Virus record (IMG/VR): IMGVR_UViG_3300045988_160259
Location: 32,001 to 96,000 of that record
DNA from: a virus
Strand: one strand, 5' to 3'
DNA: 64,000 bases
Shown: in pieces, positions 3,177-32,374 of the stretch
Layout of the letters: every line of letters starts with the position of its first letter
Numbering within the stretch: the first letter of the stretch is position 1
Notes under the pieces: generated by a model
What the model saw: the letters and a program-made list of their open reading frames with translations, nothing else
What the model was told of the DNA's origin: nothing
The model's database searches: none
Program-made: the position numbers and the translations under genes

Positions 3177-3204
3177 ATGTATGTCTCCTTTTATAAAAAA
3201 ATAA

Positions 3205-3287
3205 TACCGGCAGCGAGACTCGAACTCGCACTGCTCATAACAATCTGGGCTTAAACCAGATGTGTCTACCAATTCCACCATACCGGC
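3205..3287 (-). tRNA. tRNA-Leu(UAA): tRNA-Leu (anticodon UAA), long variable arm
   Basis: Manual cloverleaf: acceptor GCCGGTA/TGCCGGT (2 GU), anticodon arm TCTGG-TTTAAGC-CCAGA, T arm GCGAG-TTCGAGT-CTCGC. Confidence 0.85.
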
Positions 3288-3322
3288 ATACGGAGGCACT
3301 GCCTCCATTCGCTAATTATATA

Positions 3323-3412
3323 CGGAGCCTGTAGGATTCGAACCCACGCGCCGCTATTAACGGCCTATCAGTTTTCAGGACTGACCTCTTCAACCAACTT
3401 GAGTAAGACTCC
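3323..3412 (-). tRNA. tRNA-Ser(UGA): tRNA-Ser (anticodon UGA), long variable arm, C at position 33
   Basis: Acceptor GGAGTCT/AGGCTCC, anticodon arm TCAGT-CCTGAAA-ACTGA, T arm GTGGG-TTCGAAT-CCTAC; loop has C instead of the usual U33. Confidence 0.8.
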
Positions 3413-3421
3413 AAACAAAAA

Positions 3422-3505
3422 TGGGCAGAGCAGGAGTCGAACCTGCGGTGTTTCTAATGTAACGGATTTACAGTCCGTCGCTATCGCCACTAAGCACATC
3501 TGCCC
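3422..3505 (-). tRNA. tRNA-Tyr(GUA): tRNA-Tyr (anticodon GUA), long variable arm
   Basis: Acceptor GGGCAGA/TCTGCCC, anticodon arm ACGGA-CTGTAAA-TCCGT, T arm GCAGG-TTCGACT-CCTGC. Confidence 0.85.
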
Positions 3506-3547
3506 ACAAAAATAGGAGAGTAAACCGAAATATTGGATTCACTCTCC
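3506..3547 (-). terminator. rho-independent terminator after DUF262 gene
   Basis: GGAGAGT/ACTCTCC 7-bp hairpin (3515-3547) followed on minus strand by TATTTTTG. Confidence 0.6.
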
Positions 3548-4556: not shown

Positions 4557-4765
4557 ACAAAATTACCTCCTGTATTTGATAATTTCACATTATCACAATA
4601 GGAAAATTTTGTAAAGGTACAGCACGTCCTTTTTATAAATATTTTTGCGATTTTTTGTATTTTTTGACGTCGCACATTTTCTCAGGTATGTGCCAATACC
4701 GATTCCTAGACGTCTGTCGGAGATTGCAGTTTGCGTGTTGCTACACGACCACCCATATTTTACTA

Positions 4766-4794
4766 TTGACAGATTTTTCCTCTTGCCATATAAT
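4766..4794 (+). promoter_or_regulatory. consensus sigma-70-type promoter
   Basis: TTGACA (4766-4771), exactly 17-nt spacer, TATAAT (4789-4794). Confidence 0.6.
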
Positions 4795-4799
4795 CTATA

Positions 4800-5200
4800 T
4801 GTGGGAGTTCACCCAGGCGTTTTGTTTACGGCTGGATGAAATGTTAAGGATTTTTCAGAGTCGCACCGGAGCAGTGATGCTTCGTTATATAGATACCCTT
4901 GCTAAGAAAGGAGGGTGATGCGATACGAATCATGTTTGGAATGTAATTAATGATACATATAGACTGATCAATGAGAGTAGCGTACTTTCAAAGACCGTCG
5001 CTGGTATTATTTCCGGACTAACTATTGAGCTTTTTCGAGATTTTAAACAAACAAAAAGAAACCACTAAATAAGTGATTTCTTCTCGTTTTACCAAAATCA
5101 GCCGTTTCCCCTCGGCTCTGAGAAATCCATCTGGATGGACATCCCAATTTTATATTCGATTTATTGAAAGCCACTTGACAATCAAGTGGTTATTTTTATT
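4800..5200 (+). ncRNA. candidate orphan transcript (no credible ORF) between consensus promoter and terminator
   Basis: Bounded by promoter 4766-4794 and terminator 5171-5200; GC-elevated; only 4-10 codon ORFs with canonical starts. Confidence 0.35.
5171..5200 (+). terminator. rho-independent terminator
   Basis: CCACTTG/CAAGTGG hairpin (5171-5189) followed by TTATTTTTATT. Confidence 0.7.
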
Positions 5201-7203: not shown

Positions 7204-7354
7204 ATTGCTGGTGTGATAGGAACATACCCTATACATTCGTTCCACCAATAGAGATGAGATAGGAGAGCATTAACCATCCTATATTACTCATTACCAGGTT
7301 ATCCACCCGTCTCTAATCATTTATTCTCTGCACTCATTTGCAGAAAATTGTAAA

Positions 7355-7426
7355 CAGGAAGCCAGGGATTCGAACCCTGATTAACAGTTTTGGAGACTGT
7401 CGTGTTACCAATTACACTAACGACCT
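7355..7426 (-). tRNA. tRNA-Trp(CCA): tRNA-Trp (anticodon CCA) with two adjacent acceptor-stem mismatches
   Basis: D arm GTGT/ACAC, anticodon arm ACAGT-CTCCAAA-ACTGT, T arm CAGGG-TTCGAAT-CCCTG; acceptor AGGTCGT vs GCTTCCT leaves T4-T69 and C5-T68 unpaired. Confidence 0.65.
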
Positions 7427-7430
7427 GTAT

Positions 7431-8362: not shown

Positions 8363-8824
8363 TTTAATATTCTCCTTTTGTTCAAATAAATTTTGCACTT
8401 ATGAAGTGCTTGTCTAATTTTTTATAATGTGTTATTCTTTATAAGTACGGAGCATCTTCCGTACTCTTGGACTGCCGGTTTTTCCAATGATAGAAAGTTT
8501 ATCAACGGAAGGCAGGTGATTTAGTATGGCGATGGTTTATTCACCAGAAACACCAGTGCATGTCAAAAGCTACTCACGTTTTCGTTATAATAAATGGGAA
8601 CAAGTGAGAGAGCATTGGCGTCACGAACCTAACCGTTAGGTAGGTACCTGCATCCTGATGACAGGATTGAATTCTCTGATAAAGTTCACTTCTAGAAATC
8701 AAGATGGCCGTCAGTCCTTCTTCTGTATTGTTTTAGTCATCGGCTTTTCCCGAGTTTTATACGTTTTGTTGTATAACAACGGAAAGTCATGAATTCTAGG
8801 TAGCCGATGACCTTCTTTATATGT

Positions 8825-12592: not shown

Positions 12593-13463
12593 ATAATGCT
12601 ACATAAGTAGCAAAATAAGTACGCTGAGATTAAACGTATCTTCGGAAACCTTTACCGACATTATTTTTTCTTCGGTTATCCACTATATGTTGCTTACGCA
12701 CACACATAGTATCTTCCACAACCGCCTTTTGAGAAGAGGCTTATCTTCTTTACTGTATGACTACTCAAGTTTCATCATTCCATTAACACTGCCGTGCTAT
12801 AAATCTCCGCTAAGAGAACTGTGCAGAATCCGCTTAACACATCCAGATATTGCGTATCTTTCAGTGTGTGTATTACCTCCGAAGAGATTACACATTTTGG
12901 CTGCTTACACCATACAGAGGTACAGACTTTCGCTTTATAATTTGTTTGCCTTTTGCATCAAACCAATTTTTATGTTCTTCCTGAATATACTAATTAATAG
13001 AAACGAAATTGAATACAGAAGACGCGCTGCACCAGATGTTTCGTTATCTTTTGGATAACAAAATCCATCACGCCTTCGTAGCTTTCGGTTATAATCCCTA
13101 CTCACATCCTGCATAAGCTAATTTGGCATCTCTACCAATTCACTTACCCAAATGGACATCGCACTTGTCTAATAAGGACTCGCACTATATATCCTTCTAA
13201 TTCCCCATCATATCTTCATAGGTTCGCGTGAGCTATTCTGTTGCGCAGAAAAATGATTCTCAGCGGTTGCCCCTGAATCACCTTGTTGCTCCCTATTTCC
13301 TGACACTATTTCCACACAGGACTTACTCGTTTTACCGGTATGAAACGGCACTTTTTGAGTGCCTGGGATGTTAGTTTTGCATAGATTGACCAATTTTCAT
13401 GGCGACGAGTTGTAAATTCGCCTTTAATACGCTCACACGCATCTATCTGTGCTATGCCACGAG
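12593..13463 (-). ncRNA. candidate large structured non-coding RNA embedded in tRNA cluster (GOLLD/ROOL-class context)
   Basis: About 870 nt without credible ORF, visibly higher GC than flanks, many hairpins including GNRA-capped (12682-12710) and C(UUCG)G (12877-12886) when read on minus strand; flanked by tRNA-Ile and a CAU tRNA-like element. Confidence 0.45.
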
Positions 13464-25319: not shown

Positions 25320-25740
25320 TCTTGTATTGGTGGACAGTTTATAGGGTATAGGTGTTTGAATGGATTCTAGGTCGATTATAATACTGTTTTGTCTTTAGAT
25401 CAATAGTAAGGATGATTTGTGATGATATGATATGGTTTAGATAGGTGAGTGTTGAAATAGTGAAGGAGAGAGGAAGAGTGCAATTTTTAATCCGTAAAAT
25501 GTTTATCGTTTGAGGCCAGAATTTATATGGGGTATTTTTGATTGAGGGTAAAAAAGTGGAGAGTAAAATTTGAAGGGCAGAGTGATTTTAAGGCTTGATT
25601 ACTGAGGTTTACGATAAGGGGTACGATATGGGGTTTTGGTGCGTGGAAGGGGAATTTTGGGCTTGGTTATTGGGGAAAGTGAGAATGAATTTTGGGATGG
25701 AAGATTTTGGAGTTGGTGTGTGGATGAACCGACTGTACAC
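25320..25740. other. C-depleted, G-tract-rich divergent intergenic region (candidate origin or regulatory hub)
   Basis: C is very rare on plus strand, with runs of about 65 nt lacking it; GGGG tracts at 25618, 25630, 25649, 25672; AATTTTGGG at 25653 and 25688 plus variants. Confidence 0.5.
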
Positions 25741-25944: not shown

Positions 25945-26466
25945 ATGATTAAATTTGAAAACAACAACAGTATCGTAGCAGATAACAGCATCGTTTTAAA
26001 CGGTGTTCGTGAGTATAAACTCACAGATGATGAGACGATGAAACTGATGTCTATCATTGACGGTATGATCTCTCAGAGATCTACCACAGGAGTATCTACT
26101 CCATCCACTCAGCTCTCACGGTCTGATGGAAAAGTTGGCGGTATCACTCGTGCCAGCAAAACGCCTTACGAGGCGAAAAAGGCTTTCAAGCCTCAGTACG
26201 AGGTGAAGAAACTTGCAGACGCTGACGGTAAGTCTCTGTTCTGCATCAGCCGTAAAAACGGCTGGACGAGAGCTGAAAAAGCGTTGACGAACGCTGCTAT
26301 CAAAGCTCTCCCGGAGATTATTACAATCTCCGTGCCGTATGAGAAAGACGGCAAGACCAGGACTTTCTCAGCCTGGGGTTATAAGACCAAAAAACGGGCT
26401 GAGGAGATGCTGGAGCAGCTCCCGACTGAGTTTTCAGCAGACGAGCTGAACAACTGGGGTAAGTAA
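25945..26466 (+). CDS. hypothetical protein (GC-richer than genome average)
   Basis: ORF track frame; ATG 25945; its stop codon lies in the loop of a GNRA-capped hairpin (26456-26473) and no terminator follows. Confidence 0.7.
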   Translation: MIKFENNNSIVADNSIVLNGVREYKLTDDETMKLMSIIDGMISQRSTTGVSTPSTQLSRSDGKVGGITRASKTPYEAKKAFKPQYEVKKLADADGKSLFCISRKNGWTRAEKALTNAAIKALPEIITISVPYEKDGKTRTFSAWGYKTKKRAEEMLEQLPTEFSADELNNWGK

Positions 26467-26473
26467 TTACCCC

Positions 26474-27688
26474 AGCTCGACTAGGCGAGGTTAAACAGCT
26501 GTTAAGCCTAGTGCGTCCCGGTAGTAATACCGGGGGTCAGATACGCTATAGTATCTATATATTATATACGTAACATGTTCTTTGCTACGTTCTGTCTTTC
26601 CAGCGTTATAGCTGGTTTCGACATATGAAATATTCCAAAAAAATTAAATAAATCCCTGATACCCCGTAGAGGAAAGTTAGGCGTTTCTCGAACGGTTTAC
26701 GTCATGGGACGGCATCAAAAGACGCAATTTAAGGCGTCCTGTTTATGCTAGACATACGTCAGATAAACCGACTGACGCAGTTATAAACAGGAAAACTGCC
26801 AATAAAGGAGGTGTGCGTGATGCAAGAACATGAGTAAATCTAGGTTTTGCGGACAAGTCTTTTATTAGGACAAGGAAGCATGTCATACGTTGGATATAGG
26901 CTTTCAGGGGGGACAAACTGGTGGGAGCCAGTCTAGGTGGAGAGGTCAATCAAACTATCTCGGCATAGAATAGTTCGGATAAACCGAAGATGAAGACCGA
27001 AGAAAGTGGTGGTCTTAAGGTCGGCGTATGTATAGGCTAATACAGCTATACGTTCTCATCCTAGTACAAAAATGGCAAGTGATTGACACAACTTGTCATC
27101 ATAAAAGCGTCTCAAGAGACGGTATTCTCAGTCATGATTTAGAGAAATCGTTTCCAGGATAAAGCGTTCTAACGCCAACGAGGTATAGAACGTGGTTGAC
27201 GCGTTTTCAGTATGGCTGAAAGTAATAAAAACTGATGCCCGCTACTGGTAAACAACGAGATCACGGACTAGAAAATAGTGGTATTGACCGTAGAAGCTTG
27301 GATGAAAAATGTGACTTGGATATTTGTCTTGAGAGACGCAGGTAGCACACAAGAGCCGGTGGTGACACCGATACGAAGTGTTTCGTGTGTAGCGTTGATT
27401 GCATCTGTCTGCAATCGTGTGTGAGGTCTGAGCGGTACAATCCCCGACAGTAAATCCTAACTCTAAAGTTCTTTTAAGAACATTGACGGACGTTCTAAAG
27501 TTGATCGAACGTATTGTAATTTAATACGAGTCATCAACAAAACCGTGATTCTCATAATCGGTTTGTGTAAAGAGGTTGAGACAAGTGGAGAACATGCGGC
27601 TGTATCTAGTTTGAGTGACATAAATAGCAGCGTGGCATGGCAGGTACACCGAATAAAGTAGAAAGGTCGGTGTGAGTAAACCCTCCAC
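26474..27688 (+). ncRNA. candidate large structured non-coding RNA / structured 3-prime UTR ending at a hammerhead
   Basis: About 1.2 kb without credible ORF, GC-elevated. Helices include 26517-26534 (GUAA loop), 26738-26791 (9-bp closing stem over nested 6-bp hairpin), 27357-27370 (GUGA loop), 27373-27386, 27397-27416, and long-range 27584-27590 with 27683-27689. Confidence 0.5.
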
Positions 27689-27742
27689 TCCTGTACATAT
27701 GGTATAAGTCCATGTGCTGATGAGACATGAGTCGAAACAGGA
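27689..27742 (+). ncRNA. hammerhead ribozyme, type III topology
   Basis: TCCTGTA / CATATGG-TATAAGT-CCATGTG-CTGATGA-GAC-ATGA-GTC-GAAA-CAGGA: complete CUGAUGA and GAAA cores, UA cleavage dinucleotide, stems I (7 bp), II (3 bp), III (6 bp, open). Confidence 0.85.
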
Positions 27743-27770
27743 TAAATATAATATATTAGGAGGTATTACA

Positions 27771-28025
27771 ATGAGTAATATGAATGAGTTTCTTGCTAAA
27801 AAACGTGCTTTTTATGAGAGCAAGGGTTTTTCGAAAGAAGATGTTAAAAATGCGGTCGAAATCTGGAAGGATTACAAGGAAGATCTCGAACGCATCGAGG
27901 ACGAACTCATAGAAGAAGGGAAACCTGTAAATGGATCTGATTACGAATTACGGCAAGAGGATTCATGGCAATGGTATTCTGGACTTCTTGATGAAATAGA
28001 AGAGAAATATGAGGAGGTTAGATAA
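27771..28025 (+). CDS. hypothetical acidic protein
   Basis: ATG 27771 with AGGAGG at 27758-27763; the first 19 codons of the ORF-track ORF overlie the ribozyme and were trimmed. Confidence 0.7.
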   Translation: MSNMNEFLAKKRAFYESKGFSKEDVKNAVEIWKDYKEDLERIEDELIEEGKPVNGSDYELRQEDSWQWYSGLLDEIEEKYEEVR

Positions 28026-28296: not shown

Positions 28297-28698
28297 ATGT
28301 TCAAAAAATTAACAGCAACACTTCTCACCCTTACCACCATCTTTTCCGGAATCGCAGCTTACAACACCACCAAAGCAGCAGAACCAGTAAAGGCAGAATC
28401 ACGTCAGAATGCAACGGAAATCACAAGTGAAACTCAGAAGCTCGATTACAGCCAGGAACAGGACTACAGCTACGCAGATTCATTTATTGCTGACGTAGTA
28501 GATTGGAATACTGACGGCGAAGAACTGGCACTTATGACAAGTGACGGCTATGAATTTTACGCCTATAAATCACAGAATGAGTATGACTTTAACAAGGCAT
28601 ACGTGGCCTTGGATGACATCACCGACGTGGAAAAGGCAGAAGGCAAAATCCGTATCTACACAAAAGATGGAACAATCTATCAGGTGTTCGGAGAATAA
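28297..28698 (+). CDS. secreted protein (signal peptide)
   Basis: ORF track; AAGGAGG upstream; MFKKLTATLLTLTTIFSGIAAYNTTKA signal-like N-terminus. Confidence 0.75.
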   Translation: MFKKLTATLLTLTTIFSGIAAYNTTKAAEPVKAESRQNATEITSETQKLDYSQEQDYSYADSFIADVVDWNTDGEELALMTSDGYEFYAYKSQNEYDFNKAYVALDDITDVEKAEGKIRIYTKDGTIYQVFGE

Positions 28699-31972: not shown

Positions 31973-32374
31973 ATGGAAAAACGACATAATCCAGCTGGCT
32001 TTGATTATGAAATCATTGCCCAAAAGAAAGAGTACGCACTCATCAAAATGGAAAGTACAGAAGAGTACAAGATCGTATCCGACATCTGTGCTGATGGAAG
32101 CTGGGCTTACACTGTCTGCTCATGGATGTATGGAAAATATGGTAGAGAAGAATATCTTATTTTACAGGATGCTCTTGATGCATTTCGGTATAAAACGGAA
32201 AGTGATTACATCCCACGGTCACGGCTGGAAGAGTTAGCAACTCAATGGAAAGACAAAATCATTCAGGATTGCTGGATGACAGAAGAAGAACAGAACGAAT
32301 ACTTCATCGGTGAACAAGATATGGATGATGCAGAATTAGAATTTTTCGGATTATTAAAAGGAGATGATGAATAA
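31973..32374 (+). CDS. hypothetical protein
   Basis: ORF track frame; start moved to ATG 31973 behind GAGAGGAAA. Confidence 0.7.
   Translation: MEKRHNPAGFDYEIIAQKKEYALIKMESTEEYKIVSDICADGSWAYTVCSWMYGKYGREEYLILQDALDAFRYKTESDYIPRSRLEELATQWKDKIIQDCWMTEEEQNEYFIGEQDMDDAELEFFGLLKGDDE

Follow-up and report, generated by a model that had tools for sequence, protein, structure and literature searches.

Here we describe a type III hammerhead ribozyme, and the conserved RNA that it borders, in a 64,000-nucleotide (nt) window of viral DNA (positions 32,001 to 96,000 of IMG/VR record IMGVR_UViG_3300045988_160259; 'the window' is this whole stretch, and coordinates are its own unless a locus is named). Sequence, fold and covariation identify the 54 nt at 27689-27742 on the plus strand as a genuine type III hammerhead, for which self-cleavage is predicted. 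A second self-cleaving ribozyme, a pistol, lies at the opposite edge of the same stretch free of open reading frames (ORFs), and between the two lies a conserved structured non-coding RNA (ncRNA). We consider it probable (roughly 0.7) that the hammerhead is functional and that its cut, together with that of the pistol, frees a 1159-nt ncRNA while also setting the 5' end of the downstream mRNA. While the ribozyme itself belongs to a well-known class, the interesting part is the arrangement, a pistol/hammerhead bracket whose members are swapped with tRNA-like elements in related loci.

The hammerhead ribozyme and its subfamily

From 5' to 3', the locus consists of the following features, the parts of the hammerhead being given after the whole:

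25945-26466 (+): 173-amino-acid (aa) ORFan gene, which precedes the pistol/ncRNA in every related locus
26475-26541 (+): pistol self-cleaving ribozyme (Rfam RF02679, full-length, 69.5 bits against a gathering threshold of 34.5)
26537-27695 (+): predicted excised ncRNA, 1159 nt, with 5'-OH and 2',3'-cyclic phosphate, from the predicted cuts and conservation
27689-27742 (+): type III hammerhead ribozyme, 54 nt, from sequence, fold, covariation, models R1 and R2 and a chance test
27689-27694/27737-27742 (+): hammerhead stem III, 6 bp, open, including A15.1-U16.1
A27695 (+): H17, with predicted cleavage A27695^C27696
27696-27702/27710-27716 (+): hammerhead stem I, 7 bp, one U.G pair
27703-27709 (+): hammerhead loop 1, 7 nt
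27717-27723 (+): hammerhead core CUGAUGA (C3-A9), from sequence
27724-27726/27731-27733 (+): hammerhead stem II, 3 bp, GAC/GUC
27727-27730 (+): hammerhead loop 2, AUGA, 4 nt
27734-27736 (+): hammerhead GAA (G12-A14), from sequence
27758-28025 (+): Shine-Dalgarno (SD) sequence AGGAGG (27758-27763) and 84-aa ORFan gene (ATG 27771), first cistron of the predicted 3' product

As RNA, the element reads UCCUGU-A-CAUAUGG-UAUAAGU-CCAUGUG-CUGAUGA-GAC-AUGA-GUC-GAA-ACAGGA (27689-27742, +). The invariant hammerhead core is complete (C3 U4 G5 A6 N7 G8 A9 and G12 A13 A14), the A15.1-U16.1 pair is formed by A27737 and U27694, and H17 is A, i.e. non-G. Loops close stems I and II while both ends lie in stem III, which is the type III topology, and the element aligns over its full length to two covariance models (R1 and R2, below). 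A first-pass annotation of this DNA had read the same features from the letters: every invariant core position in the correct order, the A15.1-U16.1 pair with H17 = A, a 7-bp stem I with one GU and a 7-nt loop, a GAC/GUC stem II with AUGA beside an open 6-bp stem III, and a cut after A27695, 75 nt before the ATG at 27771. Each of these was borne out, the core to the base, and the stem II, stem III and type III assignments in the fold of the 54-mer as well as in its sequence. Its view of the 3-bp stem II as the weakest element does not stand, for that length is invariant in the subfamily described below, and stems II of 2 bp are common among natural hammerheads (PMC3088659).

In isolation, the 54-mer has a minimum free energy (MFE) structure that is exactly the hammerhead three-way junction (-15.1 kcal/mol, z = -2.2). 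A relaxed descriptor (stems I, II and III of at least 5, 3 and 4 bp, loops of at most 12 nt) matches the window at 27689-27742 only, and matches none of 300 random 64-kb sequences of the window's dinucleotide composition. Model R2, whose training set of 19 other type III hammerheads from phages excludes the candidate's subfamily, likewise returns the site as its sole match in the window, aligned end to end at 33.9 bits (E 1.9e-6 in a 170-kb search), a score that carries a mild bias towards the candidate in that part of the training set was collected with a pattern fixing GAC/GUC at the base of stem II. Model R1 gives the site 73.9 bits.

Rfam, by comparison, is silent: cmscan called no hammerhead in the window at gathering thresholds, and none in 1.8 kb or in a 91-nt slice at E <= 10. 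As a positive control, the same library was run on 12 IMG/VR loci whose type I and III hammerheads are of textbook form and called no hammerhead family there, nor did it on 20 further hammerhead loci (32 in total; e.g. L006, L013, L025 and L064, 'L' numbers designating loci here and below). The hammerhead of L064, for example, reads CCUGUC-CGCAGGU-GUGU-GCCUGCG-CUGAUGA-GACC-AAAA-GGUC-GAAACAGG. These runs readily called pistol, tRNA, GOLLD, ROOL and drum RNAs on the control loci. Because the library is also blind to 32 evident hammerhead loci, its silence at 27689-27742 is uninformative.

The loops and core define a subfamily. We scanned for it with the pattern TANAAGT-N7-CTGATGA-N3-ATGA-N3-GAAA, which fixes the loops and core but constrains no stem position and does not reach the 5' strands of stems I and III. 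It matched 13 contigs of viruses and 14 from genomes or metagenome-assembled genomes (MAGs). Two of the matches are chance occurrences in coding sequence, and the rest all adopt the type III hammerhead fold, stem I having 7 bp and stem II 3 bp. The subfamily, with its loops UANAAGU and AUGA, is present on about 25 unrelated contigs of viruses and MAGs. In an ungapped alignment of 21 distinct subfamily sequences (A1), 93.8% of pair cells hold standard pairs as against 74.9% after shuffling, with 0 of 500 shuffles as high, and pairing falls to 32-49% when the partner is slid by 1-3 columns. Two-sided changes are seen in 12 of 17 pairs (5/7 in stem III, 6/7 in stem I and 1/3 in stem II), stem II occurring in the subfamily as GAC/GUC, GGC/GCC and GGC/GUC (A-U, G-C and G-U). 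The core CUGAUGA and GAA and the U-A pair (A15.1-U16.1) do not vary in any of the 21 sequences, and H17 is always A or C. Both loops are also invariant across the subfamily, as are the two G-C pairs that close loop 1, and no Watson-Crick pairing between the loops is conserved, a pattern that fits a conserved tertiary contact between loops 1 and 2.

Members of the subfamily are found in varied surroundings. Contigs of DPANN and Candidate Phyla Radiation (CPR) MAGs (Woesearchaeota, Pacearchaeota, Saccharibacteria and others; L137-L145, L147, L148 and L150) carry it with an ATG 5-9 nt after stem III, and in L145 it occurs twice within 360 nt. Loci L125-L136 (IMG/VR, mostly sample 3300045988) are identical up to the hammerhead core and diverge right after GAAAC, the ribozyme apparently marking a boundary of recombination or between modules; L125 and L136 retain only 3-4 bp of stem III. 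Two contigs bearing a subfamily hammerhead also encode other RNAs, namely a drum RNA (L119 6039-6163, +, 78.5 bits) and a ROOL RNA (L135 10842-11427, +, 370 bits).

Sequence identical to the window is found in a 208,682-bp ENA contig and in several Logan contigs, and the source looks like a large gut phage. Near and distant searches of the INPHARED phages returned no relative, bar one pistol-only match, a search of IMG/VR returned no related locus with both flanking proteins, and an exact 26-mer of the hammerhead gave no match. Orthologous loci were instead reached through homologues of the 173-aa protein, for which eleven genomic contexts were fetched. In the closest clade (L151-L154), where this protein is 71-83% identical, the hammerhead is kept: 0 of 54 nt are changed relative to the window in L151, and 1 of 54 in L153 (U.G to C-G in stem I). 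In the same orthologues the ncRNA differs by 6.5-6.7% and the DNA of the upstream gene by 15-20%, suggesting that the hammerhead is under purifying selection. L153 lacks the 84-aa gene, a homologue of the window gene at 28297-28698 following directly, and still keeps the hammerhead; the ribozyme therefore travels with its upstream neighbour.

Another related phage, L158, has a type III hammerhead-like element at 8456-8507 (+), after a MYG1-like exonuclease gene. Its core is CUGAUAA (G8 to A), it scores 30.9 bits with R1 and 33.7 bits with R2, and it may be an inactive or a variant hammerhead.

The pistol and the RNA between the ribozymes

The pistol was absent from the first-pass annotation. 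It begins 9 nt after the stop codon of the 173-aa gene and is found at the same position in at least 12 related loci, its pseudoknot covarying between CUAG/CUAG in the window and CCGAG/CUCGG in L155. We take its exact cut, the G53-U54 site of pistol structures, to be G26536^U26537, in the G-U linker between P3 and the 3' strand of P2. The position is drawn in part from published pistol biochemistry, which includes a substrate-strand design (PMC4604425).

The gap of about 1.15 kb between pistol and hammerhead has frequent TAA, TAG and TGA codons in six of six frames and is thus non-coding in any genetic code; a coding reading under a reassigned stop codon was ruled out on this ground. Over 26542-27688 at E <= 10, Rfam returned the pistol and chance-level matches only, with no GOLLD, ROOL or other family, and no convincing plus-strand terminator or promoter was found between the two ribozymes. 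Every homologous locus that we fetched has a gene-free gap of 1.2-2.1 kb in the same place. Along its full length the RNA is 94% identical to those of L151 and L153, and it shares collinear islands with L155; a profile of it matches L155-L161 at E values from 1e-17 to 1e-284, and a BLAST network joins L156-L164. Three hairpins recur among the homologues:

26757-26777 (+): hairpin A, stem CGUCA/UGACG covarying in 13 distinct homologues, invariant loop GAUAAACCGAC
26993-27016 (+): hairpin B, stem AAGACC/GGUCUU, conserved loop (G)AAGAAAGUGGU
27072-27099 (+): hairpin C, stem AUGGCAAG/CUUGUCAU, conserved loop UGAUUGACACAA

Their 11-12-nt loops are invariant while their stems covary in more than 10 distinct sequences. 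Scanning for motif A followed by motif B recovered 12 more loci in IMG/VR, Joint Genome Institute (JGI) metagenomes and MAG contigs; L176, from the same scan, is an apparent chance match. The family extends to about 20 related gut-phage loci, the RNA measuring 1.1-2 kb, and its conservation and covariation mark 26537-27695 as a bona fide conserved structured RNA family that is absent from Rfam.

What stands at the two ends of the RNA differs among lineages. The 5' boundary lies a few nt ahead of the first hairpin, which is conserved in the family (GAUACGACAUAGUAUC type). Its module is a pistol in most loci (the window, L151-L160, L166 and L168-L170) and a tRNA-like element, with acceptor stem and canonical GGUUCRANYCC T arm, in L162, L164, L165, L167 and L171-L174. 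The 3' boundary lies just before the ribosome-binding site of the next gene. Here the module is a hammerhead in the window and L151-L154 only, a tRNA-like cloverleaf in L158/L159, L162, L164, L166/L169, L167, L168, L170, L171/L172 and L175, and a plain 11-bp hairpin in L155. Searches with descriptors for hammerhead types I/III and II and with models R1 and R2 found no hammerhead at the 3' end of the ncRNA outside the window's clade. The acceptor stems of the 3' tRNA-like elements covary (AGCCAUC/GGUGGCU, AGUCACU/AGUGGCU and AGCCACC/GGUGGCU); ARAGORN calls two of the tRNA-like cloverleaves, and the Rfam tRNA model none. Cloverleaves with canonical T arms, on the 3' or the 5' side of the ncRNA, are located as follows:

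L159 6228-6304: tRNA-like cloverleaf
L164 5900-5999 and ~4720-4810: tRNA-like cloverleaves
L162 5786-5884 and ~4720-4770: tRNA-like cloverleaves
L170 2925-2999: tRNA-like cloverleaf
L167 3178-3274: tRNA-like cloverleaf

The 3' end of the long ncRNA MALAT1 is made by RNase P at a tRNA-like element, mascRNA. By analogy, we infer that the tRNA-like modules of the phage loci would do the same job as the ribozymes, through RNase P at the 3' module and tRNA 3'-processing enzymes at the 5' module, an equivalence that concerns the positions of the ends and not their chemistry. On balance we lean towards seeing in these loci an undescribed class of large (1.1-2 kb), ornate gut-phage ncRNA, always located after an ORFan of 160-180 aa, which would draw its termini, according to lineage, from ribozymes or tRNA-like elements, with the hammerhead and pistol as self-removing end modules. 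A literature search found no description of a phage ncRNA flanked by pistol and hammerhead ribozymes, which is not proof of absence.

Proposed transcript processing and competing explanations

We propose that a single plus-strand transcript would span the 173-aa gene, the 1.2-kb non-coding region and the genes further downstream. The hammerhead would fold during transcription and cut itself after A27695, and the pistol, 1.2 kb upstream, would cut after G26536. The predicted pistol cut is 5 nt before the pistol's own 3' end and the predicted hammerhead cut 7 nt after the hammerhead's own 5' end, and both catalytic domains would therefore stay on the flanking fragments. The released 1159-nt RNA (26537-27695) would have a 5'-OH and a 2',3'-cyclic phosphate and would keep only UCAGA and UCCUGUA as scars. 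On the other side of the hammerhead cut, a new mRNA 5' end would be created at C27696, with a 5'-OH and the stem I and II hairpins, followed 62-75 nt on by the SD sequence and ATG. The hammerhead would in this way act as a protein-independent end-processing module, making both the 3' end of the ncRNA and the 5' end of the next cistron. That cleavage would separate the upstream RNA from the downstream mRNA had been put forward in the first-pass annotation and is the best-supported reading, the ribozyme being backed by the subfamily covariation, the orthologues and model R2.

Several points weigh against this proposal. Activity and cleavage in vivo, co-transcription, and the definition of the ncRNA ends as the selected function are parts of it that we infer. 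In a 201-nt context, the MFE structure is an alternative fold (-50.0 kcal/mol, as against -47.0 kcal/mol for the hammerhead fold) that pairs CUCCUG 27688-27693, which includes the 5' strand of stem III, with AGGAG 27758-27762 of the SD sequence. The cut cannot be essential to the ncRNA family, because the closest clade alone (window and L151-L154) uses a hammerhead. The tRNA-like modules of other lineages would leave 5'-phosphate and 3'-OH ends, not 5'-OH and cyclic-phosphate ends. The other members of the hammerhead subfamily are purely intercistronic, with 16-50 nt separating them from the preceding ORF and 5-100 nt from the following one, and without the ncRNA. Since they sit between two protein genes, ncRNA maturation is not the general role of the subfamily; nor is the subfamily tied to the ncRNA, because a homology search for the ncRNA in the loci that share this hammerhead matched in the ribozyme alone. 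We conclude that the generic activity of the subfamily is transcript cutting, and that at this locus it has probably been put to use in setting the ncRNA's 3' end.

A different weighting of the same facts gives an explanation that we regard as unlikely, namely that the hammerhead serves the downstream 84-aa gene through intercistronic processing, with the 3' end of the ncRNA as a by-product. An mRNA capped by hairpins and a 5'-OH should resist 5'-end-dependent RNases, and the cut may free the SD sequence from CUCCU, with which it pairs in the MFE structure of the uncleaved RNA. The intercistronic location of every other subfamily member points in this direction, as does HHphage of a halovirus, which lies 13 nt before a start codon and has a transcript 5' end within three nt of the cut (PMC3088659). 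However, L153 has no 84-aa gene and still keeps its hammerhead beside the ncRNA, the same slot in ncRNA homologues is occupied by tRNA-like elements or a hairpin, and neither L119 nor the L125 group conserves the pairing between CUCCU and the SD sequence. Nor does service to the downstream gene exclude maturation of the ncRNA, as both concern the same cut.

Cleavage at A27695 would take away the CUCCUG/SD pairing. A riboswitch-like, anti-SD reading of this pairing was considered and rejected, since other members of the subfamily do not conserve it.

It is improbable that the ends of the 1159-nt RNA are joined into a circle by a host or phage RtcB-type ligase. RtcB acts on 5'-OH and 2',3'-cyclic-phosphate ends, exactly those predicted here, and both ribozyme bodies would lie outside the product. 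However, in the MFE structure of the 1159-mer the 3' UCCUGUA is unpaired and the 5' end is in a local hairpin, with no terminal complementarity or panhandle. Circularity cannot, moreover, be a property of the family, because homologues bounded by a tRNA-like element or a hairpin would present RtcB with ends unfit for ligation, and Perreault et al. sought circular or spliced products of prophage hammerhead pairs and found none (PMC3088659).

That the element is a decayed, inactive hammerhead or a structured spacer resembling the consensus by accident is very improbable indeed: its activity is a prediction, a competing fold is predicted in context, stem II is short and the nearby phage L158 has a hammerhead-like element with a G8-to-A core change, but all 13 core positions are intact, orthologues show 0-1 changes where the flanking ncRNA differs by 6.5%, the stems covary across 21 sequences in which loops and core never change, 300 random windows yield no chance match and stems II of 2-3 bp are normal (PMC3088659), so that a chance match or dead relic is excluded as far as sequence allows.

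Genomic setting and relation to known systems

The 173-aa protein upstream of the pistol has 47 homologues (42-87% identity) in a family of 160-180 aa. Pfam gives a sub-threshold match to Arm-DNA-bind_4 only, and PHROGs none. An AlphaFold 2 model has a confident C-terminal beta-beta-alpha-beta-beta-alpha domain (residues ~85-160, predicted local distance difference test, pLDDT, > 90), and the protein has a conserved LFCISRKNGWTRAEK motif; a Foldseek search of the model against the PDB returned nothing at E < 0.1. This protein could be a partner of the ncRNA. A homologue search with the 84-aa protein of the downstream gene returned only itself.

Other features of the window include a further large RNA and several tRNAs:

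12621-13078 (-): GOLLD RNA, 196 bits
12519-12592 (-): tRNA-Ile(UAU), 28 nt downstream of GOLLD
3204-3506 (-): tRNAs Leu, Ser and Tyr
7354-7427 (-): tRNA Trp

The succession of GOLLD and tRNA is a parallel layout within the same window, a large RNA followed by a processing signal. Three copies of a degenerate direct repeat (GAATTTTGGG...-type, 25 nt) are present at 25580-25715, in the divergent intergenic region between the minus- and plus-strand gene blocks; these repeats might be promoter or origin elements.

The hammerhead shares with type III hammerheads at large (Rfam Hammerhead_3, RF00008; e.g. that of the plus strand of satellite tobacco ringspot virus, sTRSV(+)) the order of its elements, CUGAUGA...GAAA, the A15.1-U16.1 pair and a non-G H17, as well as stems I and II closed by hairpin loops beside an open stem III, with 7 nt in loop 1 and 4 nt in loop 2, which is of the NUGA type. 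In sTRSV, stem II has 4 bp and stem I has 6 bp, whereas here they have 3 and 7 bp, the loops are specific to the subfamily (UANAAGU and AUGA), and the carrier is a double-stranded DNA phage rather than a circular RNA replicon. The bracket as a whole resembles synthetic cassettes (ribozyme-guide RNA-ribozyme; Tornado circular RNA) in which two self-cleaving ribozymes flank a central RNA. The orientation is the same, such that both ribozymes would be removed and the ends would be 5'-OH and 2',3'-cyclic phosphate; the pair here is a natural one of pistol and hammerhead, and ligation is a proposal only.

Among natural systems, tandem prophage hammerheads have been found to cut polycistronic transcripts of ~2 kb in vitro (Perreault et al. 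2011, PMC3088659), and the idea that phage hammerheads divide polycistronic RNAs into units has been published (PMC3088659). The present hammerhead has in common with these an intergenic site on the coding strand near a start codon, a proposed transcript-cutting role and a short stem II, but its partner is a pistol and the unit is a conserved ncRNA of 1.16 kb, where in the prophages the units are genes (PMC3088659). Pistol, hammerhead and twister ribozymes are known to associate in gene neighbourhoods (Weinberg et al. 2015; PMC4604425; PMC6765202), and the locus fits this association in having a pistol and a hammerhead within a few kb of phage DNA. In contrast to that general association, the geometry here is concrete, with the two ribozymes at opposite ends of one RNA, each placed so as to remove itself, and with natural tRNA-like substitutes that hint at end definition as the role. 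GOLLD and ROOL are encoded near tRNAs in phages (PMC12286853), and they and MALAT1/mascRNA share with the present family a large structured RNA directly followed by a processing signal, which in the ncRNA homologues is tRNA-like. In the window's clade, by contrast, this signal is a self-cleaving ribozyme, which would need no host enzyme and would leave a cyclic phosphate instead of a 3'-OH.

Bacterial and phage hammerhead, twister and pistol ribozymes occur in the thousands and are clustered, and reviews call their purpose undetermined (PMC6765202). With two ribozyme classes at the two ends of one RNA, and tRNA-like swaps in sister lineages, the locus is an unusually clean natural experiment, in which the purpose of phage ribozymes becomes a directly testable claim, namely RNA ends at 26537 and 27695. 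The ncRNA family could also suit structural study of the kind carried out for GOLLD and ROOL. If the maturation of the ncRNA by its two flanking ribozymes is true, it would give phage pistol and hammerhead ribozymes a natural function in the precise, host-independent maturation of a structured RNA, and the locus would show that ribozymes are evolutionarily exchangeable with substrates of RNases P and Z.

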